IMG/VR virus record: IMGVR_UViG_3300042691_030495 | Length of the DNA: 64,000 nucleotides | Reading direction: 5' to 3' (one strand) | Source of the DNA: a virus | In this document: positions 3,969 to 64,000 of the stretch, one piece after another | Layout: each line of letters opens with the position of its first letter | Position numbering within the stretch: position 1 is the stretch's first letter | Notes under the pieces: model-generated | Told to the model about the DNA's origin: nothing | The model's database searches: none | What the model saw: the letters and a program-made list of their open reading frames with translations, nothing else | Program-made: the position numbers and the translations under genes

Positions 3969-4041
3969 CCCCGTGTACTCCAATGGCAGAGAGAGCCGAC
4001 TTAAAATCGGTACAGTATCGGTTCGAGTCCGATGGCGGGGA
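3969..4041 (+). tRNA. tRNA-Leu(TAA), short variable loop
   Basis: Acceptor CCCCGTG/GGCGGGG (one mismatch), anticodon arm GCCGA-CTTAAAA-TCGGT, T arm ATCGG-TTCGAGT-CCGAT, discriminator A. Confidence 0.85.
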
Positions 4042-4055
4042 CATAATTCAGAATC

Positions 4056-51498: not shown

Positions 51499-53250
51499 TT
51501 GGGAATTTTCAATAAGAACAGCAAAAACACACGTAGAGAATCTACTAACAGTCGCTTTAGGGCTTCGGTGCCTCGCACTGCGACCCCTGTTGCTCCAGGC
51601 ATCTCTGTAGATTCTTTCGGTTTGGTTTATGCAGAGCCCGCGGCCTACAACACCCCTAGAGCTTTAACTGCAGCAGCAGCCCAGATAAAAATTGGTGACA
51701 AAACAGAGGCAGAGCAGTTTAAAGCTCGTAGACAGTCCGCTTCTTCGTCCTGGCAGACAGAAGCTTGGGAGTACTACGACGCGATTGGCGAAATTAAGTA
51801 CGCTTTTAATCTTGTTGCTGCAGTTGTATCCCGTATTCGAATCTACGCAGCATCTGTAGACAACCCAGCCGAGGCTCCTGTTCCTGTAAATATCTCAGCG
51901 AACATAGATCCTCAGCTAGCAAGAGCCGCTGAGCGCGCATTGGCAAGACTTAACTCAGCATACGGTGGTCAGGCAGGTCTTTTGAAAGACGCTGCTCTAA
52001 ATCTTCAGGTTACTGGAGAGTGCTACCTAGTTCAGGTTCCAGAACGTGTTGGCACTGGTCTTCCAGAGAGCTGGGACATGAGATCTGTAGATGAACTACA
52101 GCTAGACTCCAGAGGAAACTATGTCATTAGCCCAATTCGCGATGTTTCAGGATCTTCTTCCAACCAAACTTCAAAAAGTGCGATAAAACTTCCTAAGGAC
52201 GCGTTTATTGGACGCATTTGGAAGTCTCACCCTCGTTACTCACTAGAGTCAGACTCATCGCTGCGCGGTCTACTCGATCTTTGCGCTGAACTTCTACTTC
52301 TTAACCGCACCTTCCGTGCAACTGCACGTTCACGCTTGAACGCTGGTGCTCTCTACTTGCCAGACGGACTGTCAGTAGCATCTTCTCCGGATCCAGACTA
52401 CCCATACGATGAAGATGGCGAATACAACGAGCAGTATAACGCCGAGGAAGCTGCTGACGACTTCGAAGATCAACTAATCGACGCGATGACCACTCCGATT
52501 AAGGACGAAGACTCCGCGAGCGCCGTTGTCCCACTTATCATTCGTGGACCTGCAGAACTTGGCGACAAGATCAAGCAGTTTAAGTTCGAGCGTTCGTTTG
52601 ACGCCAGCCTTGTGCAGCGTGCTGACCGAGTCCTTGAGAGAATCATGCAGGGTCTAGACGTCCCTAAGGATGTTGTAACAGGTCTTGCAAATGTTAAGTA
52701 TTCAAACGCTCTACAGATTGACGAAGCACTCTACAAGGCTCACATCGAACCTCTAATGCTTCTTATTGTTGACGCTTTGACTGTTGTTTACTTGCGTCCA
52801 TACCTAATTGCAAACGGCTATGACGAAGAAGCTGTAGCCAAGATTCAGGTTTGGTATGACCCAAGTCAGGTAGCAACCAGAAATGACAGAGCTACCGACG
52901 CAGACAGCGGATTCGACAAGATGGCAGTCTCCTACAACACATGGAGACGCGCGCACGGATTCTCAGATGCAGACGCACCTAGCCCAGCAGAACTTGCACT
53001 ACGCCTTGTAATTGAGAAGGGTATGATCACCCCTGAGCTAACTCAAAGCATGCTAGAAGCGGTTGCGCCTGAACTTAAAGATCTTATTAACGCAGCAAGT
53101 CAAGCCAGCTCTGTAGCTCCTATGCCACCAGAGATTGAGCAATTGCTAGCTGGACAGCCAGTGGCTCCTGGAGCAGAGGCACCTACCGAAGAGCCTGCAG
53201 CAGAAGCCCCGGGTCTTGCAGAACCAGTAGCTCCTCAAGAAGGGCAGTAA
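51499..53250 (+). CDS. Portal protein (actinophage type)
   Basis: Position after terL; WQTEAWEYYDAIGEI.Y, SRLNAGALYLP, DEDSASAVVP, HIEP motifs. Confidence 0.85.
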   Translation: MGIFNKNSKNTRRESTNSRFRASVPRTATPVAPGISVDSFGLVYAEPAAYNTPRALTAAAAQIKIGDKTEAEQFKARRQSASSSWQTEAWEYYDAIGEIKYAFNLVAAVVSRIRIYAASVDNPAEAPVPVNISANIDPQLARAAERALARLNSAYGGQAGLLKDAALNLQVTGECYLVQVPERVGTGLPESWDMRSVDELQLDSRGNYVISPIRDVSGSSSNQTSKSAIKLPKDAFIGRIWKSHPRYSLESDSSLRGLLDLCAELLLLNRTFRATARSRLNAGALYLPDGLSVASSPDPDYPYDEDGEYNEQYNAEEAADDFEDQLIDAMTTPIKDEDSASAVVPLIIRGPAELGDKIKQFKFERSFDASLVQRADRVLERIMQGLDVPKDVVTGLANVKYSNALQIDEALYKAHIEPLMLLIVDALTVVYLRPYLIANGYDEEAVAKIQVWYDPSQVATRNDRATDADSGFDKMAVSYNTWRRAHGFSDADAPSPAELALRLVIEKGMITPELTQSMLEAVAPELKDLINAASQASSVAPMPPEIEQLLAGQPVAPGAEAPTEEPAAEAPGLAEPVAPQEGQ

Positions 53251-53252
53251 TA

Positions 53253-53708
53253 GTGGACCAGCCATCTAGCGTAGATCTTGCAAAGAAACTTGCTCATCTA
53301 CTGTCTGACGTAGTTTCTCTGTCTTTTATTTCTCAGGGGCACCACTGGAACATTAAAGGTTTTAACTTTTATCAGTTCCACGCGTTCTTTGCAGAAATAT
53401 ACGAAGACACTTCTTCAGCGATTGATCCTCTTGCAGAAAACATTAGAAAGCTAGGATTCAATGCCCCCTATCTTCTAACTGACTTTTCCGAGATGACCTG
53501 CATCAACCAAGAACGAATTGACGGAGACGCCATTGAGTCTATTAATTCTTTAGTTAGTGCAAACAGTATTGTAACTAACTGCTACGCAGATGCTTTTGAG
53601 CTTGCAGAAAACTGCAACCAACCAGGCATTGCAGACTTCCTTGCTGGAAGACATGAGATGCACCAGAAGTGGCAGTGGCAGTTAGAGTCAACTTTAGGGA
53701 TTAGATAA
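53253..53708 (+). CDS. dps: Dps / ferritin-like DNA protection protein
   Basis: HWNIKG.NFYQFH.FF.E.YE...IDPLAENIRKLG...HQKWQWQL. Confidence 0.88.
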   Translation: MDQPSSVDLAKKLAHLLSDVVSLSFISQGHHWNIKGFNFYQFHAFFAEIYEDTSSAIDPLAENIRKLGFNAPYLLTDFSEMTCINQERIDGDAIESINSLVSANSIVTNCYADAFELAENCNQPGIADFLAGRHEMHQKWQWQLESTLGIR

Positions 53709-54400
53709 TGTCTTCGTATTTAGAGTCTGCTTTTGGTGGAAACTCAAATATCTCGGGATACTCTTTAGTCCCAGAAGAGCAAGAGTTTGCTGACGCAATC
53801 CTAAAGGTTGCCAAAAAGTACGGAAAGTTTAACGACGACAACAGCGGTGTTTGGGTTGGGTACACTCCTGCCTCAGAGAATGAGGAGAACGCTCAGATTG
53901 GCGTTAAGTGTGGCAACTGTGTCTTCTTCATGGGCGGAAATGCCTGCCAGATCCTAGCTGAAGCAGTGGAGGAGAACGGCCTATGCCGTCTTGCTGTATT
54001 GCCAGATGGCGCAGTCACTGCTACAGCTGGCTCAAAGCCTGCTCCGAAAAAAGATCAAATCAAAGGATCTAAAAAGAACCCTAAAGGTTCGGCCGACGAT
54101 GGCAAGAGCGTAACTTTCAACGAAACCATAATTACGTCCCTCAAGAACAAGGTAGAAAGCCACAACGAAAAGGCAGAAGCTGGCAGAAAAGCAACTCTTC
54201 CAACTCTAAAAGCTGTATACCGCAGGGGTGCTGGAGCTTTCTCTACATCTCACAGGCCTGACCAGAATCGCAACTCTTGGGCTATGGCCAGAGTGAACGC
54301 ATACCTGCACTTACTAAAAACCGGATCTCCTAAAAACTCAAAGTACACAACAGATAATGACCTGCTACCAAAGGGTCACCCAAAGTCAACAAAGAAATAA
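53708..54400 (+). CDS. Head-module hypothetical protein with a Cys cluster domain and a basic C-terminal domain
   Basis: CGNCVFF....C........GLC; LKAVYRRGAGAFSTSHRP...WAMARVNAYL. Confidence 0.65.
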   Translation: MSSYLESAFGGNSNISGYSLVPEEQEFADAILKVAKKYGKFNDDNSGVWVGYTPASENEENAQIGVKCGNCVFFMGGNACQILAEAVEENGLCRLAVLPDGAVTATAGSKPAPKKDQIKGSKKNPKGSADDGKSVTFNETIITSLKNKVESHNEKAEAGRKATLPTLKAVYRRGAGAFSTSHRPDQNRNSWAMARVNAYLHLLKTGSPKNSKYTTDNDLLPKGHPKSTKK

Positions 54401-54473: not shown

Positions 54474-57400
54474 GTGAGCCAAGCGTTCGATTCCCTACTC
54501 GCTAAGATCGAGAACTACTACTCTGACGCGGATTACACCGTTCAAGACGCCGAGCACCTGTCTCGCATCGCTATCTCCGAATACGCTTCGACTCAGAATG
54601 CTCTAGTAGCTTCGGCTCGTCAACTTTCCAATAATTCAGTACAAAAAATTATTGACCTAACAATTAATAAGCACATAACTGCAGACCCAAGCGAGTGGAT
54701 GCTCTTCGCAGCAAATGCCGTAGACAACGTAATTAACTACTCACAGCGCGGTGTACTAGCTTCTGGTCTTTCAGACTTTACAGACTTTTTACCAGTAGGT
54801 CACCCGTCAAGAACTAACCGCGGGGCTATGACCGCCTCTGCACTAAACCAGGCCACCGCGCTTTGGACTGCTGCAGACCCTCGCATTGCTTCTGACGAAG
54901 CTAGATACGACACATACAAAGCATACGCAAGCCAGCCAGGATCAGTTGAAGCAGACTACGCAGCGTATAAACTTTCAGCACTAGTTGCAGCAGGTTATGT
55001 TCCAGAAGACATTAGTCTTCCGATCACTGCAGCGTTCAGAATGAGCTTTGCAATGCGCTCCGCAATGTCTAAGGCACTTGCTGCTGTACGTCGTCGCCAC
55101 CGCGATGGTAGATTCGCTGAAGAGTTTGGACGTCTAAAGGGATTCTTTAGCCGTGGAGACGGAAGCATTTTCTCTGAAAACGGAAGAATTGTTGGCGCTG
55201 AGCGTGGGACCAACAACTTTGAGGTAGAGTTCAGCGGATCCGACGAGATTCCAGATGGTATCTACACCATCGATGCAGCTAAGACAGATTCCGTTAAAGC
55301 TGTTCTATCTAAGCGCGCACTGAAAGGCGTTAAAGGAAAGCGCAGTATTGCAGTGCCGACTCAGGCAGAGCGAGACGCTGCTATTCCTCTAGACGAGTTT
55401 ATAAAAACTAAAAAAGATGCACCAGAGGGTTGGACTAAGAACGAAGATGGATCTTTTACATCTAAGACAGGTCAGACACTACGTCAGGTAGACACTCGCC
55501 CTGAAGGTGACTACATGTTTGAAGGTGCTGGCGAAAGTGGTGCCGAAGATCCTAACGAACCGTTCTTTGAGTTAACTGACAGAGACGGCGAAATAATCGG
55601 TGTTGCTCAGGACTGGGCCGGCGCAAACAAAATTGCACTTACCTACGATGCTTTTGAAGAAGACAGCAAGCCAGAACCAGAAGAGCCAGGTCTCGACCAA
55701 GACGCTCCTGCCTCTGATCAAGAGGATCCTACAGCCATTGGAAAACCGGAAGACCCTAGAGCAGCTGCAATAGAAGATTTAGTATCCAACCTTGACTCTG
55801 CTGAAGCAAGAAGAGAATTTGAGCGCATGGAGCGGAGAGATGGCTCTTGGCTTGACTCAGAGCAGCCATCAATAGACGCGTATGGACCTGACGATAAGAA
55901 TCTGAACTGGAATGCTGAGTACGACAAAACTACTAAGGACCTTATAGAAAAGATTTTTAGTGACCCAGCAGTTGTCGAAGCTCGTAATGATAGGCCACTA
56001 GCTAAAACGCAAGAGGGCGACCCTGAGGACTGGGAATTAGACAATTGGTACCAAGAAGTCGGCGCTGCAATTTCATGGGCAGCAAAAAAGTACGCAGAAG
56101 AAGCTGCACCGGGCCTCGACCAAGATGCTCCTCGAAGCTTAAATGAGCCAGAAGACTCCGCTGTTGACATCGGTCCAGACCTAGAGAGAACTGACAGCGG
56201 AGATTTAGAGTACTACTCTGACACTGCTGGTGCTGACATCTCTAAAGTTGGAGACAAGTGGCAGCTCGTCAAGAGCGGGTTTGAGGATATTGAACAGCAC
56301 CCACGCGGTGTCTACCAGTATGAAGACACTAAGATGTTTGACTCCGAGCAAGAAGCCATAGCTGAAGCACAAAAGTGGATTGATTTAGGTAAGTCTTCTG
56401 ACTTCTACGACTTTATGTATAACGACTGGTTTGATGGCCAAGCAGATGGCCTAGACCAGGATGCCAAAAACCCTAACTGGTTTGAAGACGCTATTGACTT
56501 TGATGCCATAGACAATCAGGATAGCTGGAAAGACCTAGGCGGAGGCTCCAGAGAGTACACCTCACCAGACGGAAAACTAAAACTAACTTTTGAACCAGAC
56601 GGCGACTCGGACGGTGAGGGTGGACTTGTAGACGCCTCCGGAATTACTGTTGAGTACGATGGTCAATCTGTTGGCAGCTTTAAGGCAACCGAGCGCGACC
56701 TCACGTCTCCAGGAGAAGTTGCAGACGCCCTTAGCCGTACTTTAGCTGAAGCTAATTTTAATCCTAACGATTTAATAAAATTTGATGATTTTGGAAATTA
56801 CGGCTTCGAGCGAGAGAGCGGTCTTGGCACAGTTTCTATCTCTAAAAAGTACGACCCAAACACTAAGAAACTCCAGTGGGAAGTAACTAAAGAAGCTCGC
56901 GACCTTATTGATGAGAACGTTGAGCACTCTTTCTTTGAGCAAAAAAAGTTTGACTCCTTAGATGACGCAAGAGCTTTCGCTGAAGAGTTTGCTCAGATTC
57001 TTAACGATGACGACAAATTCTCCAAATTCCTAAACGATGACTGGGCAGACAGAGACTACGACTACGGCTTTGACCAAGCAGGCGGATCTACGACAGATAC
57101 CGTAAAGCAGCTTGCTGACGGATACAACATCACTCCTCGTGTAGAAATAGTTTACAATTCGAACACCAAGCAGTATGAGCGTTCAGTAAACTCGAACGAG
57201 TTTGAAGCAGACGGTGACTTCTACGACTTTGGTTCGGCAGTAGTTAACCTGTCTGAATATGCTCCAGGTAAATGGGTAGCAACTATCTTCTATGGAGATA
57301 GGGATGGCAGTGGCCAGGATACCCTTGAACTTGAGCAAGACTTCAACAGCCCCGAGGAAGCCTTCGAGTGGGTAGCTAACGGATTTGGTAAAGGGTTTGA

Positions 57401-59915
57401 CAACTCTCAGGTTGCGGAAGGTGTATTAGAACGTCAAGACCTAGATGAGATGGCTAGCTTCCTGCAGAACCCTAAGTACAAGGATGCTCACGACGAAGTC
57501 CGTGATGTTTACGATGAGCTCAACTCAAAGTACTTTGAGCAGGCTCCTGGATCAGGAGAGATCGAGGCCACAGAAGGCGGAAATGCTTCCTACAAAGGAC
57601 CAGATGGATCTACTGGATCTATAAAGTCCGACGGCTCCGGCACCTGGGAAGGCTCCTTCACAGACGCTGAGGGAGAAGTCTCCACCAGAAAGTTTAAAGC
57701 AGAAGATAAAGCTGCTGCTTGGCTACAGAAAAAAGTAGACGACTCTAAATTAGCTGCGTTTAAGAAAGAAAATGGCGGGCTATCTCCAAAGCAGCTCGAG
57801 CCAGCTACCTCTAAGCAGTATGACCTACTGCAGGAACTTTTTGACGAGCGCGACGAGATTGATTCTCTAACTTCTGACGCCATCAAAGATGCTCTAGACA
57901 ACCGCAACCTTTCTAAGTCTCAGATTTCTGCCCTATTTGGCGATCTTCAGAAGAAGCCGTTCAAGCCAGGAGTAGACTCCACTAAGCCAACCGACAGAAT
58001 GTTGAACTCTCTACAGGGCTACCTGACTACAAAGCAGATTTCTCCAGAAGAGCTAGACGACATCCTCAGTCAGCTTGAGGCAGGACTAGACCGCCCTGGC
58101 ATCGAGGCCTTGACAAACAAGCTACGTCGTAAGCCAGATAACGCTGACGCAGCTGGCCTTGACCAAGATGTTAACTCCAAGATTGACCCCACTATGCCTG
58201 ACTCAGCAGTAGGTGCTGATGATGACATTAAGCAAGAAATTGAAGACGCTATTGAGCGCGCCCGTAGCGATCACGAGCGCCTATTTGACGAAATAAATGC
58301 AAAAGAAGAAGACGGAGAGATAACTCCGGAAGAGGCAGAGTCCCAGCGGGATGAGCTAGAGCAGGGCTTGGAGCAGTTCCAGTGGGCTGCCCGTAGACGC
58401 TACTACGATTATCTTTGGGAGACCGGAGAGTTCAACGAAGCGTACAACGATGTTCTAGAAGCATGGAACTCGCAGAGTTTCCGCGATGAGGAAAGAGATA
58501 GAGCTTCACTATTTGACGAAGAAAACGAAGAGGATGAGGGATTAGACCAAGACGCTCCAACCAAGCCTCTCACCGAAAAGCAGCTAGAGCCAGCTTCTGA
58601 CGCTCAGTACAACTACCTACAGAGTCTTGTTGAATCCAAGATGAATGTAGACGCTGACACTGCCGCCGCTGTTGCTGAAGCAGCTACTAACAAGAACCTA
58701 AGCAAGGCTCAGGCCGGTGCTCTTATTGGCAAGCTCCGTGTTCTAGATGACAAAGAAAATCTTGGTCAGTACGGCAAGCCTTCTCAAAAGATGATTGACT
58801 CGGTTAATCGCGACGTCTACGCTAAGGGACTTTCCGAAGAAGACAGAAACGAGATTTTAAAAGATCTTGACAGCTTGTCTAAGGCTGATGTCTCAAGCAT
58901 CATAAGCCAGCTCAAGGAGATGCCAAACGTTCCTGGAGGTCTCGACAACTACATCAAGTCTTTAGTTGAAGATGGAGATCTTGAGGCACTTAAGAGACTA
59001 AGAGCTGACGTTAGAAATGAAGACTCCTTCTCTGTATTAGACAAAGCTATAGCTGATGTCGAGGCCGGAAACACTCCTGGACTAGATCAGGCTGCTCCTT
59101 CAGCTCCGGCTTCAGGACCTCTCTATGACAGGGACGAAGCTTCGAACCTACTAGACGAGATAAAAGCGGCTGAAGACGCTGGTGAAATTGGTAGCACCTT
59201 CTTGCCAACAGACTCTCTTAAGGATTTTGACCCTGAAGACATCGGAGATGCGGCTAGCATGTATGTCGAGTTAGACGATGCTATCGGCAATGTTGGAGAG
59301 GGCAGCTTAAGACAGAAGCTAGAGCAGTTTGCTGAAAAACTACTCAGCAGCATCCAGTCTAGGCTTGGCCCAGTTGAGTCCGCTAAGCGCGACAGCGATG
59401 ATATCGGAAGCGAATTAGAGTTTGATCGCACTTCTAGAAGAGCTAACGATCTTGTTGAGTTCTACTACCCCTCAGAAGGTATCGCTTTTGACCAGCTAAA
59501 TGAGCCAGGAAACAGCAATGTTGGAGACAACAGAGGCGGCGGCTGGGAAGCACGAGTTGCTCTAGACGAAGATGAAGAAGAGGAAACTTGGGTTGCAACC
59601 TTAACCTCTCCCGAAAACGACAGCCAAAACGAGCAAAGAAGTTTTGACAACCAAGAAGACGCGGCTCGCTGGGCAGCAGAAAACTTAGAGTCTAATAATA
59701 ACGAGCTTTTGCCATCAGAATTAGATGAGTTTTTGAGTGGACAAATCTTCTCGACTTATGCTGACAACCCTCAGGCGCTAATCTCTAAGCTGAACGACAT
59801 AGCTGAGTGGTTCCGAGGAACCCGTAGAGGCGACGGAGAAGACGTAGCTAGGGGAATCCTAGAATACGTAGATCGACTAGAAAACCTTCTTGGAGACTCT
59901 GCCCCAAAAGCGTAG
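54474..59915 (+). CDS. Giant acidic multidomain (polyvalent-type) head-associated protein with G[LF]DQ linkers
   Basis: 1813 aa; located between portal and head genes; seven G[LF]DQ[DA] linkers; internally repeated small domains. Confidence 0.8.
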   Translation: MSQAFDSLLAKIENYYSDADYTVQDAEHLSRIAISEYASTQNALVASARQLSNNSVQKIIDLTINKHITADPSEWMLFAANAVDNVINYSQRGVLASGLSDFTDFLPVGHPSRTNRGAMTASALNQATALWTAADPRIASDEARYDTYKAYASQPGSVEADYAAYKLSALVAAGYVPEDISLPITAAFRMSFAMRSAMSKALAAVRRRHRDGRFAEEFGRLKGFFSRGDGSIFSENGRIVGAERGTNNFEVEFSGSDEIPDGIYTIDAAKTDSVKAVLSKRALKGVKGKRSIAVPTQAERDAAIPLDEFIKTKKDAPEGWTKNEDGSFTSKTGQTLRQVDTRPEGDYMFEGAGESGAEDPNEPFFELTDRDGEIIGVAQDWAGANKIALTYDAFEEDSKPEPEEPGLDQDAPASDQEDPTAIGKPEDPRAAAIEDLVSNLDSAEARREFERMERRDGSWLDSEQPSIDAYGPDDKNLNWNAEYDKTTKDLIEKIFSDPAVVEARNDRPLAKTQEGDPEDWELDNWYQEVGAAISWAAKKYAEEAAPGLDQDAPRSLNEPEDSAVDIGPDLERTDSGDLEYYSDTAGADISKVGDKWQLVKSGFEDIEQHPRGVYQYEDTKMFDSEQEAIAEAQKWIDLGKSSDFYDFMYNDWFDGQADGLDQDAKNPNWFEDAIDFDAIDNQDSWKDLGGGSREYTSPDGKLKLTFEPDGDSDGEGGLVDASGITVEYDGQSVGSFKATERDLTSPGEVADALSRTLAEANFNPNDLIKFDDFGNYGFERESGLGTVSISKKYDPNTKKLQWEVTKEARDLIDENVEHSFFEQKKFDSLDDARAFAEEFAQILNDDDKFSKFLNDDWADRDYDYGFDQAGGSTTDTVKQLADGYNITPRVEIVYNSNTKQYERSVNSNEFEADGDFYDFGSAVVNLSEYAPGKWVATIFYGDRDGSGQDTLELEQDFNSPEEAFEWVANGFGKGFDNSQVAEGVLERQDLDEMASFLQNPKYKDAHDEVRDVYDELNSKYFEQAPGSGEIEATEGGNASYKGPDGSTGSIKSDGSGTWEGSFTDAEGEVSTRKFKAEDKAAAWLQKKVDDSKLAAFKKENGGLSPKQLEPATSKQYDLLQELFDERDEIDSLTSDAIKDALDNRNLSKSQISALFGDLQKKPFKPGVDSTKPTDRMLNSLQGYLTTKQISPEELDDILSQLEAGLDRPGIEALTNKLRRKPDNADAAGLDQDVNSKIDPTMPDSAVGADDDIKQEIEDAIERARSDHERLFDEINAKEEDGEITPEEAESQRDELEQGLEQFQWAARRRYYDYLWETGEFNEAYNDVLEAWNSQSFRDEERDRASLFDEENEEDEGLDQDAPTKPLTEKQLEPASDAQYNYLQSLVESKMNVDADTAAAVAEAATNKNLSKAQAGALIGKLRVLDDKENLGQYGKPSQKMIDSVNRDVYAKGLSEEDRNEILKDLDSLSKADVSSIISQLKEMPNVPGGLDNYIKSLVEDGDLEALKRLRADVRNEDSFSVLDKAIADVEAGNTPGLDQAAPSAPASGPLYDRDEASNLLDEIKAAEDAGEIGSTFLPTDSLKDFDPEDIGDAASMYVELDDAIGNVGEGSLRQKLEQFAEKLLSSIQSRLGPVESAKRDSDDIGSELEFDRTSRRANDLVEFYYPSEGIAFDQLNEPGNSNVGDNRGGGWEARVALDEDEEEETWVATLTSPENDSQNEQRSFDNQEDAARWAAENLESNNNELLPSELDEFLSGQIFSTYADNPQALISKLNDIAEWFRGTRRGDGEDVARGILEYVDRLENLLGDSAPKA

Positions 59916-59932
59916 CCCCCAGCGAGGGGGCT
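59903..59932 (+). other. Programmed -1 ribosomal frameshift signal
   Basis: Slippery heptamer C CCA AAA (59903-59909) in the correct phase; hairpin AGCCCCC/GGGGGCT (59914-59932); -1 frame open into the downstream ORF. Confidence 0.8.
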
Positions 59933-62221
59933 GACAGTGGTGTTGGTCTAGATCAAGATGCCGCGGCTATTGACAGAATTAACAAGGTTCTAGCTAAGTA
60001 TCGCCCTGAGCCAGCGCCAAGCAACTCTGTACGTCCTGCGGTAGCAGTGGGCGAGCCAGGATCTAAAGCTAACCCACTCAAGCTAGATGACGAGCAGCTA
60101 CAAGAAAAAACTACACAGGTCACTAAAACCAACCTAGCTGCTTCAATTTCAGTTCTTTCTGAACTATATGACGCTTTTGATAATGTTAAAAAATTCGCAT
60201 TTTGGCGAAGAAAATGGGACCGCAACGCTACTAGGCCTATACCAGTAAACCCTGGTACTGGAGCCTACTACAAAGGTCCCAACGTGTTTGCTTTAGAAGA
60301 GGCAGCGGCTAAGAACGGATTTAGCGACCCTCGTTGGATGACCGCTCAGCAAATACTAAATATGGGTGGGTCAGTTCCTAGCGGTACCAAAGGTACACAA
60401 ATCCTAGTCCCTCAGGTTTTGGTTACTGATGTCAAAGGCAAAGTTGTAGAGCTGTATGAGTTTATGAAGGTTACTGTTTTTAATGGCGACCAGGTCGATG
60501 GAATCCCGTCATATAACCAAGATGACAACAAATCATATACTCCAGAAGAAGCTGCGAATATTCTTTTAGACCGCCTACGCGAAGCCTCTGAGATCAGAGA
60601 CACCGGACAACCAAATGTATTTGGGATTCAGCTTGATGAAGATCAAAATCCTCGATGGATGCCAAACTACGGTTCTTTTCAGCCTGAAAAAATACGACTA
60701 CCGCTTAGAGCAAATTTTGAGGATGACGAAGAGTGGTTTAACACTCTAGCTCACGAACTTATCCACTCTACGGGTAAACTTAACCGACTTGATAGAAAAG
60801 AACTAGATAAAGCTTTTGAAGGTGATGACTCAAGTAGGGCGGAGGAAGAGCTTACTGCAGAGCTAGGTGCCATGATTTTAAGTCGAATGTTTGGAATAGG
60901 TTCTGATTCTAAAAACTCTACAGCATACTTACTTAACCACTTAAAAAATGTTAAAGAGCAAGATCGCAACAACGCTGTAACCGCTGCAGTGTCTAGAGCA
61001 CAGGTTGCGGTTGAGTACTTACTGGGGAATGATGTTTTGCCTCAGTGGGACCCACTAAAGACTAAGGTCTTCCCAACCATACAGTCTGAAAGATTAGATG
61101 TCACTACTCCAAAAGCTTCAAGCTTAAACCCAGACCCAACTCCTGACTTTGTTGATGCCCAGTTAGCTGGCTTTGATCAGGCAGTAGGAGAGGAGTCAGT
61201 CGACCAGGGTAAGTCAATATCAAACAGCAAAGACGCCAAAGAAAAAGTTCTGTCTAGCCTGTTAGAAAAAATTAAAGAAGGTAAGACTCCTTGGCGTAAA
61301 CCGTTTAAAGAAGGATCAAACTTTGCAGGAGCAGACTTACCTAGAAACCCAGCATCAAAGCATATCTACAATGGCATAAACGCGATGGTTCTAAGACTAA
61401 ACCAGCAGCTTTCTGGATATGACGACCCTCGTTGGATGACATACAAGCAAGCTCAGGATCTCGGTGGAAACGTTAGAAAAGGCGAGAAGGGTGTTCCAAT
61501 TCTTATACCTTTCAAGCAGGTTCGCAAAGAGAAAGATTCTGCAACTGGACAAGAAGTAGTTACCGGTAGCTTTATAAGATTTGGAACCGGAACAGTCTTT
61601 AACGTCTCTCAGATTGATGGCATTACTCTTCCTACTGCTAAAGAAGAGGCAGGAGAACCAAAGACTCCTCTAGAGGCTCAAGAATTTATTTTAGAGCGCT
61701 ACAAAAAGTCTATGGAAGCTAAAGGTCTAAAGACACCAGAAGTTGAGTACACCTACATTGGAGAGTACGGGAACCACGCTTCTTCTCCAAACTGGAGTCC
61801 TTCTCTAGATAGAATTACACTTCCAACCAAGGAGCAGTTCAACAGTCCAGAAGACATGTTTGACACTATTGCCCACGAGCTAGCCCACAGCACGGGACAC
61901 AAGGATCGCCTAGATAGGACAGAACTTACCAGCAAGTATGGATCTGATAGCGCCGCTCGCGGCCAAGAGGAGCTCATAGCTGAGATAGCAGCTGCTATTT
62001 TGGCGAGCATGTTTGGAGTCAATAGCGACTTTGATAACACTGCAGCTTACGTAAAGAGCTGGCTTGCAGCCCTAAAGGATGACCCTAACATGGTTACCCT
62101 ATCCTCCTCAGAAGCCCAGAAGGTAGTAGACTACATACTAGGCATGGATCTAGGAGACTGGAGTCCAATAGAAGGCTACAAATCTACAGTTACTAAAAAA
62201 GATGGAGACTCAGATGAGTGA
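59909..62221 (+). CDS. Tandem ArdC-like (DUF1738 ssDNA-binding + zincin metallopeptidase) modules, probably expressed as the -1 frameshift extension of 54474-59915
   Basis: Two copies of P.N....Y.G.N...DPRWMT..Q....GG.V..G.KG and HELxH...EEL.AE...N..AY; the ORF track starts it at GTG 60047, which has no SD. Confidence 0.85.
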   Translation, partial: SVAPSEGADSGVGLDQDAAAIDRINKVLAKYRPEPAPSNSVRPAVAVGEPGSKANPLKLDDEQLQEKTTQVTKTNLAASISVLSELYDAFDNVKKFAFWRRKWDRNATRPIPVNPGTGAYYKGPNVFALEEAAAKNGFSDPRWMTAQQILNMGGSVPSGTKGTQILVPQVLVTDVKGKVVELYEFMKVTVFNGDQVDGIPSYNQDDNKSYTPEEAANILLDRLREASEIRDTGQPNVFGIQLDEDQNPRWMPNYGSFQPEKIRLPLRANFEDDEEWFNTLAHELIHSTGKLNRLDRKELDKAFEGDDSSRAEEELTAELGAMILSRMFGIGSDSKNSTAYLLNHLKNVKEQDRNNAVTAAVSRAQVAVEYLLGNDVLPQWDPLKTKVFPTIQSERLDVTTPKASSLNPDPTPDFVDAQLAGFDQAVGEESVDQGKSISNSKDAKEKVLSSLLEKIKEGKTPWRKPFKEGSNFAGADLPRNPASKHIYNGINAMVLRLNQQLSGYDDPRWMTYKQAQDLGGNVRKGEKGVPILIPFKQVRKEKDSATGQEVVTGSFIRFGTGTVFNVSQIDGITLPTAKEEAGEPKTPLEAQEFILERYKKSMEAKGLKTPEVEYTYIGEYGNHASSPNWSPSLDRITLPTKEQFNSPEDMFDTIAHELAHSTGHKDRLDRTELTSKYGSDSAARGQEELIAEIAAAILASMFGVNSDFDNTAAYVKSWLAALKDDPNMVTLSSSEAQKVVDYILGMDLGDWSPIEGYKSTVTKKDGDSDE

Positions 62222-62381
62222 AAAGAAACCAGACATCCTAGGTGGTTACACTGAAAATGATCCAGAATACTGGGCACTTTTAGCAAAGATCATAGGGAAC
62301 CCTGTGCCAGAGTACGAAGACGACAGCGAGTTCGTTGACGAAAATGGCGTTGTCATAAAAGACATAAAGCCCGCTGAATAA
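62214..62381 (+). CDS. Small acidic protein (55 aa)
   Basis: GGAG SD; ATG overlaps the end of the ArdC ORF; MSEKKPDILGGYTENDPEYWALL... Confidence 0.55.
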   Translation: MSEKKPDILGGYTENDPEYWALLAKIIGNPVPEYEDDSEFVDENGVVIKDIKPAE

Positions 62382-62439: not shown

Positions 62440-64000
62440 ATGAATAACCTAATTGGCCGCTCTGGCAGCTTGTCTCTCTATGCTAATAACGAGCATGGAG
62501 TGATTATTGACTCCTCCATCGGAGCAGTTGTTGCTAGTGGTGCTGCTTCTGACGTTTACTTCCTTGAGAGCTGGGATCTTCCGACTGATCCGGGGGCTAA
62601 AGCTGAAATTCTATTAGCTGAAAAAGCCTTGAGCGCTCTTGAAGAAAAAGCTATTGTTGCTGCCGCCGACAGAATGTACACAATTCCGAAAACTGTACAG
62701 GCTGAAGCTAAGAAAGCTTTAGAGTGGCGCAAAGAAGAGAACCGTGGGGGAACTCCTGTAGGTCTTAACACTGCTCGCACTCTTGCAAAAGGCGGTCAGA
62801 TTGGCATTCGTAAGATTCGCCACATTGCAAAATACTTCCCTCGTCATGAGGTAGACAAAAAAGGCAAGGGCTGGAAGCCTGGCCAAGAAAACTATCCATC
62901 TAACGGACGCATCGCGTGGGCACTCTGGGGTGGAGATGCAGCATGGCGCTGGGCACGCACAATTGTAGAGCGTGAAAACAAAAAGCCTGTAACTTCAGGG
63001 GGCTACTACCCAGGGCAGACAAACTTCGAAACAAGCTCGGAAGATATAAATCCATTTAAATACGCTAACGATCTTGACATGCACTACGGACCTGAATTTT
63101 TAGTCAGAGTCTGCTTAGACGGTTCCGGAATGGATCGCCTATACATGGTTGACATCGACGGATCGATTTACGTGTGGGACGACTCTAACTGGGACAACAT
63201 GGGACATGTCGATGGTGATGTGTGGACATACGATCGTATGCTAGATGATGTTTACGATACTCAGGAAAAAACTCACGTAATTATCGACCCTCAGTCGGCT
63301 CTGCAAATAGCAGCACGCATGGCTGTAGATCCTGGTTGCAAAGTAACTATGTATGAGCTTGACCAGGATGAAGCAGCTCTTACTATGTCAGGGCTTCAGG
63401 ATGAAGACTGGGACTTTATAGACCAAGTAATTGTTGCAGCCGGTACAGCTGACCCAACGACATCCCAGGCAGATAAAGATGGTGACGGAGTACTAGACTC
63501 TGATTTCTTATCTGAAAAAGCAGAAAACCAACCTAGAGATGCACGCGGTCAATTTGCTGCTGCAGGTTCTAGGGTTATTGTTGGTGGCGACGCCCAGCGC
63601 GGGTCAGGTGTTATTACAAAAGTAGACAGCAAGACCGGAATGGTTTCCGTTCGACTTGACAGCGGAAAAGAAATTGAAGTAGACGCTAAGTACACCGAAG
63701 GCGAAAAAGGCTTTGTTGGCCCTAGAGCCGTACCTAAGACCGTAGCCCCATTAGACCTTTCTGGAATTATTGGAGAATCTAGAACTCCAATTAACATGCC
63801 TAATGCTCACCTTCCTGGAACGCTACCTCCGATGTCCAGTAGAGACATTGACAACATGCTTTACAACTGGCCTAAGTACGTATCTGACATGCGCAGTTCC
63901 TACAAGCCAGCAGACGCAGCAGACAAAGAACGAGTAAAAAAGACCTGGGGACTTGAAAAGTTTGCAGGAGAAAACTCTATTGTTGCCGCAGCGGAAACAG
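62440..64000 (+). CDS. Large head morphogenesis protein (probable capsid-maturation protease fusion), truncated by the window edge
   Basis: Frame open from ATG 62440 to the end; ALEWR..NRGGTPVG...YFPRHEVDK...PSNGRIAWALWGGDA domain, QPRDARGQF motif; no protease domain is visible within the window. Confidence 0.65.
   Translation, partial: MNNLIGRSGSLSLYANNEHGVIIDSSIGAVVASGAASDVYFLESWDLPTDPGAKAEILLAEKALSALEEKAIVAAADRMYTIPKTVQAEAKKALEWRKEENRGGTPVGLNTARTLAKGGQIGIRKIRHIAKYFPRHEVDKKGKGWKPGQENYPSNGRIAWALWGGDAAWRWARTIVERENKKPVTSGGYYPGQTNFETSSEDINPFKYANDLDMHYGPEFLVRVCLDGSGMDRLYMVDIDGSIYVWDDSNWDNMGHVDGDVWTYDRMLDDVYDTQEKTHVIIDPQSALQIAARMAVDPGCKVTMYELDQDEAALTMSGLQDEDWDFIDQVIVAAGTADPTTSQADKDGDGVLDSDFLSEKAENQPRDARGQFAAAGSRVIVGGDAQRGSGVITKVDSKTGMVSVRLDSGKEIEVDAKYTEGEKGFVGPRAVPKTVAPLDLSGIIGESRTPINMPNAHLPGTLPPMSSRDIDNMLYNWPKYVSDMRSSYKPADAADKERVKKTWGLEKFAGENSIVAAAET

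Follow-up and report, generated by a model that had tools for sequence, protein, structure and literature searches.

Phages and plasmids are believed to send polyvalent proteins ahead of their DNA as protein cargo. Members of this class that combine ArdC-N with MPTase-PolyVal metallopeptidase domains are already known, and the latter have been predicted to process the chains in which they are embedded (Iyer et al., 2017; PMC5512222); how a chain of 2,000-3,000 residues becomes a set of working parts is so far a matter of prediction only. Here we describe a gene of this kind from the head module of an uncultured phage of ~140 kb, which is represented by a 64,000-nucleotide stretch of DNA (IMG/VR virus record IMGVR_UViG_3300042691_030495; hereafter, the window, to which the coordinates refer, with features on the plus strand unless noted otherwise). 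Like the described polyvalent proteins, its product is a giant multidomain chain that is encoded in a virion gene neighborhood and contains ArdC-N and MPTase-PolyVal domains, with ADP-ribosyltransferase and ParB-like modules in relatives. It differs from them in that the domains are separated by a stereotyped, clade-specific motif of four residues, in that the ArdC/MPTase part is added by what appears to be a conserved -1 frameshift, and in that most of the modules fall outside known families. The terms 'linker' and 'frameshift' are absent from the full text of PMC5512222, and in our limited literature searches we found neither such a motif nor such a frameshift described for genes of this class.

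Several other systems share individual features with this locus. In retroviral Gag/Gag-Pol, the shared N-terminal part leads both products into the particle, and a slippery heptamer with a downstream structure yields a minority, protease-bearing form, an arrangement that the phage gene would resemble by inference; the short conserved sites between the domains of the polyprotein are a further similarity. There is no homology, however, the candidate protease is a gluzincin rather than an aspartic protease, and the phage gene belongs to a tailed double-stranded DNA phage. Among phages, -1 frameshifting is familiar from the tail assembly chaperone genes G/GT of lambda-like phages and from the T7 capsid gene 10A/10B, where heptamer slippage likewise yields two nested structural-module products at a fixed ratio; the gene, the position and the payload are different here, the extension consisting of 770 amino acids of anti-restriction and protease modules. 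The internal proteins and Alt of T4 and the inner-body proteins of phiKZ and SPN3US (PMC10052503) are considered to be packaged and ejected and are comparable in their head-module location and their short repeated candidate cleavage motifs, but those motifs also occur in capsid, portal and protease substrates, whereas G[LF]DQ occurs in the polyvalent protein only and another candidate motif is common to the head proteins. Finally, ArdC of the IncW plasmids R388 and pSa (PMC7213743) has the same combination of ArdC-N, a gluzincin HExxH and a downstream Glu helix, with strong Pfam matches linking the two, but is a stand-alone plasmid protein of 300 amino acids, in contrast to the two tandem copies that end a virion-module polyprotein in the phage.

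The linker motif and module exchange

The zero-frame product of the polyvalent head-module gene (ORF1, for open reading frame; 54474-59915) has 1,813 amino acids, a mass of 200.6 kDa and an isoelectric point of 4.2, and its exact sequence is present on 10 public contigs, the longest of which is 142 kb. A script scan found nine copies of the motif G[LF]DQ[DA], seven in ORF1 and two in its -1 frame continuation (ORF2), at exactly the coordinates that an earlier, model-generated note on this DNA had claimed. Numbered from the N-terminus, copies 1, 2, 3, 5 and 6 read GLDQD (residues 406, 547, 659, 1228 and 1356; 55689-55703, 56112-56126, 56448-56462, 58155-58169 and 58539-58553), copy 4 reads GFDQA (residue 865; 57066-57080) and copy 7 reads GLDQA (residue 1536; 59079-59093). 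In the -1 frame, copy 8 (GLDQD; 59945-59959) is located 12 codons past the slip site described below, and copy 9 (GFDQA; 61169-61183) separates two ArdC units. In 20,000 residue shuffles of the 2,582-amino-acid fusion of both frames, the mean was 0.019 copies and the maximum 2. In a six-frame scan of the whole 64-kb window, G[LF]DQ[DA] occurred nowhere else, and the only sequences that came close were GLDQT and GVDQD, both on the minus strand, and a GLDQL in a frame of 23 codons.

The copies are encoded by varying codons, as the same note had pointed out (GGT, GGC or GGA for Gly; CTC, CTA, CTT or TTA for Leu; GAC or GAT for Asp; CAA or CAG for Gln), and the consensus derived from 157 distinct sites is [DE][DE]-x-[PDA]-G-[LF]-D-Q-[DAK]-A-[PG]. 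Given that the codons are free while four residues are invariant and the flanks diverge, selection appears to act on the peptide, and on this comparative evidence the linker motif is under protein-level selection. Two weaker variants had been proposed as additional linkers, one of which we retain: YFEQA (residue 1020; 57531-57545) can be considered a variant linker because close relatives have a canonical G[LFV]DQDA at this position, whereas AFDQL (residue 1671) is absent from most of the relatives examined and is probably due to chance. We also discarded GLDQ in plasmid-type ArdC-primase proteins (P0144, P0145, P0153 and P0155), which occurs once in each protein of a single related group, i.e., at chance level.

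An AlphaFold2 model was built for ORF1 residues 391-1560 from an alignment of 32 homologs, and the N-terminal domain was modeled separately. The mean predicted local distance difference test score (pLDDT) of the former model is 66, with 283 of the 1,170 residues (24%) below 50. All seven modeled motif copies, as well as YFEQA, are in coil with pLDDT below 50 that separates structured blocks, a placement with a probability of ~5e-5 for seven randomly positioned copies; in the separate model, the copy at residue 406 is found in the disordered tail of the N-terminal domain. The beads-on-a-string architecture envisaged in the earlier note is thus supported, with the motifs in predicted disordered linkers between folded modules and none inside a folded domain, a location that had been named beforehand as grounds for abandoning the idea. 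Altogether, the 2,582-amino-acid product comprises about 10 folded modules, in keeping with the many-domain character of polyvalent proteins. The conserved N-terminal domain (residues 1-405; 54474-55688), a helical bundle with a small beta barrel, is the only part common to all distant relatives, including the giant protein of the Actinomycetia phage DSL-LC01, and is presumably the domain that anchors the protein in the head or mediates its incorporation. This domain has no match in Pfam or PHROGs, and searches with its model produced no convincing fold match (best E-value of 0.2 with Foldseek against the PDB; best Z of 6.9 over 90 residues with VIA-align; template modeling score, TM, of at most 0.33 in the ESM Atlas, where a feature-based search also returned no usable hit). 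Among the other ORF1 modules, there is a weak DUF3072/TnpV-like signal in residues 1356-1535 (Pfam and PHROGs), and Foldseek with the whole 1,170-residue model returned only meaningless matches (TM of ~0.07).

No near relative was detected by DNA comparison with GenBank phages (megablast), and in a protein search of the same phages only the N-terminal 280 residues had a match, namely the giant protein of DSL-LC01, in which neither the motif nor an MPTase is present. When six fused proteins from relatives are aligned, the motifs share columns while the flanking residues differ, and the blocks between the motif columns are present or absent as whole units; for example, the 253 residues between copies 1 and 3 of the window are reduced to 5 residues in loci L003 and L006. 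To extend this comparison, 33 homologs were cut at the motifs and the pieces were clustered at 75% coverage, resulting in 53 families. The N-terminal domain is constant, most members of the clade that includes the window end in the same last two modules, and the middle is variable, with all insertions, deletions and duplications at motif boundaries. ORF2 homologs vary in the same manner: in one of them (P0080), DLDQ at residues 112 and 405 delimits a module with an ADP-ribosyltransferase domain (residues 237-393). The position of copy 9, ~140 residues past the first HExxH, is retained in many ORF2 homologs. Hence the motif is conserved in homologs and associated with boundaries there, the absence of which had been stated in advance as a reason to reject the proposal, and the anticipated gain and loss of modules between linkers is indeed seen in relatives, with blocks swapped exactly between motif columns.

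Unbiased enumeration of enriched words in each clade showed that the motif changes in concert. The top word is GLDQ in clade A, to which the window belongs (68-97% identity to the window in the N-terminal domain), GLGQ in clade B (~50%) and DLDQ, or more generally D[LF]DQ, in clade C (~40%), and a marine relative (P0031) has four copies of DVSMxRD. Across clades A-C, the L/F and Q positions are invariant, whereas the residue before L/F and the residue between L/F and Q vary. At the junctions described below, clade B has the motif immediately ahead of the slip site, and in clade C the -1 frame reads ...GPDLDQA... right after the hairpin and has S/DLDQ between the ArdC units. A comparably enriched word is lacking in three groups: the giant proteins P0039-42, which have no ArdC, the giant protein of DSL-LC01 and a lineage with an in-frame ArdC fusion (P0034-38). 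Because the copies within a protein change together while their codons drift, selection by a single co-evolving reader is suggested; this factor is most likely a protease that separates the modules.

The probable -1 frameshift and the ArdC extension

The 3' end of ORF1 reads ...GCC CCA AAA GCG TAG and includes the slippery heptamer C_CCA_AAA (59903-59909) in the proper X_XXY_YYZ phase, one codon ahead of the zero-frame stop TAG (59913-59915). It is followed by a predicted stimulatory hairpin (59913-59933) with a CCCCC/GGGGG core, 8 pairs in the window, a loop of 5 nucleotides and a free energy of -15.8 kcal/mol; no T-tract follows the hairpin and no plus-strand terminator was called there. The second plus-strand frame is open over 59852-62221 but has no start codon before 60047, which is 34 codons past the linker motif; in the -1 frame, this conserved motif thus precedes every possible start. 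After slippage, the reading would be ...APK-SVAPSEGADSGV-GLDQD..., followed by the ArdC units; the continuation (ORF2; 59909-62221) accounts for 770 amino acids and the predicted trans-frame product for 2,582 amino acids (285 kDa). The locus therefore combines a phased heptamer, a stable downstream structure and a -1 frame that is open without a start of its own at the overlap and is conserved as protein, the usual marks of a -1 programmed frameshift signal.

The comparison of this region covered six relatives from IMG/VR (protein identity of 70-81%) and, from the Logan, JGI and TARA assemblies, three loci at a greater distance. Every one of the nine loci extending to the end of ORF1 has an unchanged AAAAG..TA.CCCCC-N5-GGGGG cassette, with protein identities of 40-97% and with variation in the loop and the flanks. 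In two distant clades (L009 and L012), CCCAAAA is swapped for A_AAA_AAA, also a canonical slippery heptamer. The hairpin starts 3-6 nucleotides past the heptamer, with energies of -10.9 to -20.3 kcal/mol across the loci, and shows no covariation because its core never varies. The ORF1 termini are PKA, KKA or KKD in 33 of the 33 cluster representatives, which cover clades A-C and the marine relative, and in a sister lineage (P0034-38; locus L010) the ArdC unit is fused in frame and the cassette is missing. Two further candidates were examined and dropped: GGAG at 59892, considered as an upstream frameshift stimulator, is not conserved in relatives, and read-through of the stop codon would meet another zero-frame stop 11 codons on. 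Given the comparative evidence on the cassette and the in-frame fusion in the sister lineage, a sequencing error, independent initiation or read-through appears very unlikely. As far as the comparison goes, ORF1 and ORF2 are thus one gene joined by a deeply conserved -1 programmed frameshift, which would also account for the linker copies in the -1 frame.

The long form ends in two ArdC/metallopeptidase modules, as the earlier note had read from the letters. Unit 1 (60197-60988) consists of ArdC-N (60197-60418) and an MPTase-PolyVal zincin (60680-60988) with an intact HELIH, and matches the anti-restriction family phrog_7245 with an E-value of 8e-51; unit 2 (61229-62101) consists of ArdC-N (61229-61600) and an MPTase-PolyVal zincin (61790-62101) with an intact HELAH, and matches the same family with an E-value of 1.6e-69. 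The hallmark polyvalent domains PF08401 and PF18818 are present in two copies each, far over the gathering scores (E-values of 1e-16 to 3e-29 per domain), and each of the HELIH and HELAH motifs is followed by an EEL.AE helix, so that both units display the ArdC-N, gluzincin HExxH and Glu helix of the ArdC family (PMC7213743).

Public gene calls split the gene in two, listing, for instance, a 724-amino-acid ArdC protein (P0050). In one relative, an in-frame TGA (L002:12112-12114) breaks ORF1 ~25 codons before a GLDQN linker, for which a sequencing error, a genuine split of the gene and recoding are all conceivable. An ADP-ribosyltransferase exoenzyme-type domain is likewise part of the frameshift extension in marine and other relatives (L012:9817-13239, P0073, P0074, P0077, P0078, P0080, P0093 and P0096), and some of these extensions additionally have a ParB-like domain ahead of the ArdC units.

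Candidate readers of the linker motif

The explanation that we consider the best, and to which we would give about an even chance, is that a single head-module gene encodes two nested products whose linkers are most likely cut by the zincins of the long form. Under this scenario, normal termination would yield the acidic 1,813-amino-acid protein, i.e., the N-terminal domain and seven or eight small folded modules, whereas a fraction of the ribosomes would slip by -1 at C_CCA_AAA, stimulated by the hairpin, and add one more linker and the two ArdC units, each with a single-stranded DNA-binding ArdC-N and a gluzincin MPTase. Both products would enter the prohead by way of their common N-terminal domain, with the proportion of the substrate-only polyprotein to the zincin-bearing long form set by the frameshift. 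Cleavage of the linkers by the zincins, either in the head or after ejection, would then release swappable modules, among them the ArdC anti-restriction units. The most complete version of this proposal, a phage counterpart of Gag/Gag-Pol in which the ArdC zincins cut a co-evolving linker and release about 10 separate, swappable anti-defense modules, is more tentative and, taken as a whole, somewhat unlikely.

The earlier note had proposed two cutters, the prohead protease or the protein's own zincins, of which the former is disfavored by the comparison of head proteins and the latter has circumstantial support. Under the former alternative, the HK97-like prohead protease encoded by the next gene would cut the linkers during head maturation, in the manner of the T4 internal proteins and the inner-body proteins of phiKZ and SPN3US, and the ArdC zincins would act solely as effectors. 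Sites recognized by prohead proteases of the assemblin fold, such as [LI]-x-E for T4 gp21 and (V/L)-x-A|S for the herpesvirus assemblin, follow a P3-x-P1 pattern that the invariant L/F and Q of the linker would match. Moreover, the giant gene is located between the portal and protease genes, the catalytic region of the protease is conserved in clades A-C (70-76% identity across all clades), and for proteases of this class, processing of packaged head proteins at short motifs has been documented, in some cases at several sites per protein (PMC10052503). Nevertheless, in clades A-C the capsid, portal and protease proteins have no linker copy of G[LF]DQ, GLGQ or D[LF]DQ, and neither the major capsid protein nor the portal has a copy of the motif of its own clade, so that the motif is not shared among head proteins in the way known for substrates of the T4 internal protein and phiKZ type. 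The only [LF]DQ of the protease protein that recurs across clades, a DLDQ considered as a self-cleavage site, was rejected since it belongs to the conserved catalytic core, where it follows the GVS serine motif, and since locus L011, which has no linker motif, has it as well. That locus, of the clade without ArdC and without the repeated motif (P0039), has the same protease (70% identity over the 134 columns compared), and the linker of the marine relative, DVSMxRD, is unrelated to the others despite a protease domain that is ~70% identical. What the head proteins have in common is instead [LIV][VT][AS][ASG]: the major head protein (L003:22298-24328) has three conserved sites at the boundary between its acidic N-terminal region, the propeptide, and its body, and the first 190 residues of the giant protein contain three sites (ALVAS, ALVAA and PITAA; 54603-54614, 54981-54992 and 55023-55034 in the window) that are conserved in every clade. 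This motif resembles the herpesvirus assemblin site and may be the true cleavage site of the HK97-like protease. Given the lack of the linker motif in capsid, portal and protease, we regard cleavage of the linkers by the prohead protease as unlikely, and the protein's own zincins appear to be the better candidate.

The motif might also have a reader that does not cut. It could be a docking or handling signal on an uncut giant protein, recognized by a partner in the head interior, used in ordered threading through the portal and tail, or modified at its Gln. Disordered position, repetition and concerted evolution would fit any trans-acting reader, and some polyvalent proteins, such as the N4 virion RNA polymerase, are packaged uncut (PMC5512222); against this, no candidate partner was found, and with the motif at every exchange boundary, including the one between the ArdC units and the frameshift junction, a separator is the simpler explanation, so that a docking role seems rather improbable to us. 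A motif without any biochemical reader, i.e., a scar or joint of module shuffling copied along with each cassette, would agree with the exchange of modules exactly at the motif, but passive scars would not be expected to switch together in all copies of a protein between clades, nor to keep four invariant residues amid free codons and diverging flanks; we assign this possibility a very small weight. The least probable of the alternatives, which we hardly find credible, is that ORF1 and ORF2 are independent genes, ORF2 starting from the GTG at 60047, and that the slippery site is a coincidence or an assembly error. The gene call of P0050 is in line with two genes, whereas the same frame offset and cassette recur in nine independent assemblies from different samples, a conserved peptide with the linker motif precedes the first start codon, the heptamer is replaced by another canonical one rather than lost, and the sister lineage has an in-frame fusion.

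As to the zincins, identity in the MPTase domain is 82-85% among members of clade A and 55-63% when clades with other motifs are compared, values that may merely reflect phylogeny. A complex predicted for ArdC unit 2, zinc and a linker peptide of 40 residues scored 0.16 and 0.06 (mark 0.32), which counts neither way. Several points weigh against the proposed scheme of zincin-processed effectors. The [LF]-x-Q core of the linker has the shape of an assemblin site, with a hydrophobic P3, a variable P2 and a fixed P1. The presence of a zincin does not imply the motif, because P0034-38 have ArdC-MPTase and no repeated motif, and the co-occurrence of the motif and the frameshift may represent a single event because the clades with both may be monophyletic. 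Most ORF1 modules have no known family in Pfam or PHROGs and no recognizable function. The catalytic pocket of R388 ArdC is described as negatively charged (PMC7213743), which fits poorly with the very acidic linkers.

For the ArdC protease of R388, no substrate is known, and anti-restriction does not require its activity (PMC7213743). If the zincins do cut the linker, this would be the first defined substrate and site for a metalloprotease of the ArdC family. The locus offers a candidate cleavage site, clade-specific variants that can serve as specificity controls and a built-in candidate enzyme, and the deeply conserved recoding signal would be a new place for recoding, in a gene class for which the literature searched describes none. 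The motif-bounded cassettes (ADP-ribosyltransferase and ParB-like modules in relatives and more than 20 families without assignment) map the payload that can be swapped in uncultured phages of freshwater and the sea, which form an abundant group.

Gene neighborhood and additional observations

Upstream of the giant gene are the genes for the portal protein (51499-53250; phrog_776, E-value of 6e-104), a ferritin/Dps-like protein (53253-53708) and a DUF5824 protein (53708-54400). Downstream, a gene that runs off the window (62440-63999) has a homolog of ~1,500 amino acids in relatives that includes an HK97-like head-maturation-protease domain, and the major head protein gene comes next there. 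This agrees with the placement of the gene between portal/Dps and a head-maturation gene in the earlier note; considering the window and the relatives together, terminase, portal, head protease and major head protein genes flank the giant gene, a typical virion and packaging neighborhood.

The ferritin/Dps-like and DUF5824 genes are always located between the portal and giant genes (53253-54400 in the window; L010:8844-13709; L011:8413-9972), and in P0037 and P0038 the giant protein begins with a fused DUF5824, which in L011 is joined to ferritin instead. These fusions suggest a functional link, and the ferritin/Dps-like protein is possibly a virion-associated Dps. A small acidic ORF of ~55 amino acids (62214-62381; ...EYWALLAKIIGN...EDDSEFVDE.GVVIK) overlaps the stop codon of ORF2 and is kept at the same place after the ArdC units in L008, L009, L010 and L012.

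Two tRNA genes (Met-CAT and Leu-TAA) are found near the start of the window, at 1288-1362 and 3969-4042. In a clade B relative, a gene for a peroxidase-family protein of 730 amino acids (L008:2194-4386) is located upstream of the terminase gene, and the large terminase of a clade C relative (L009:3933-6368) contains an insertion of the intein-type homing endonuclease kind (Hom_end and LAGLIDADG_3) between the terminase domains.

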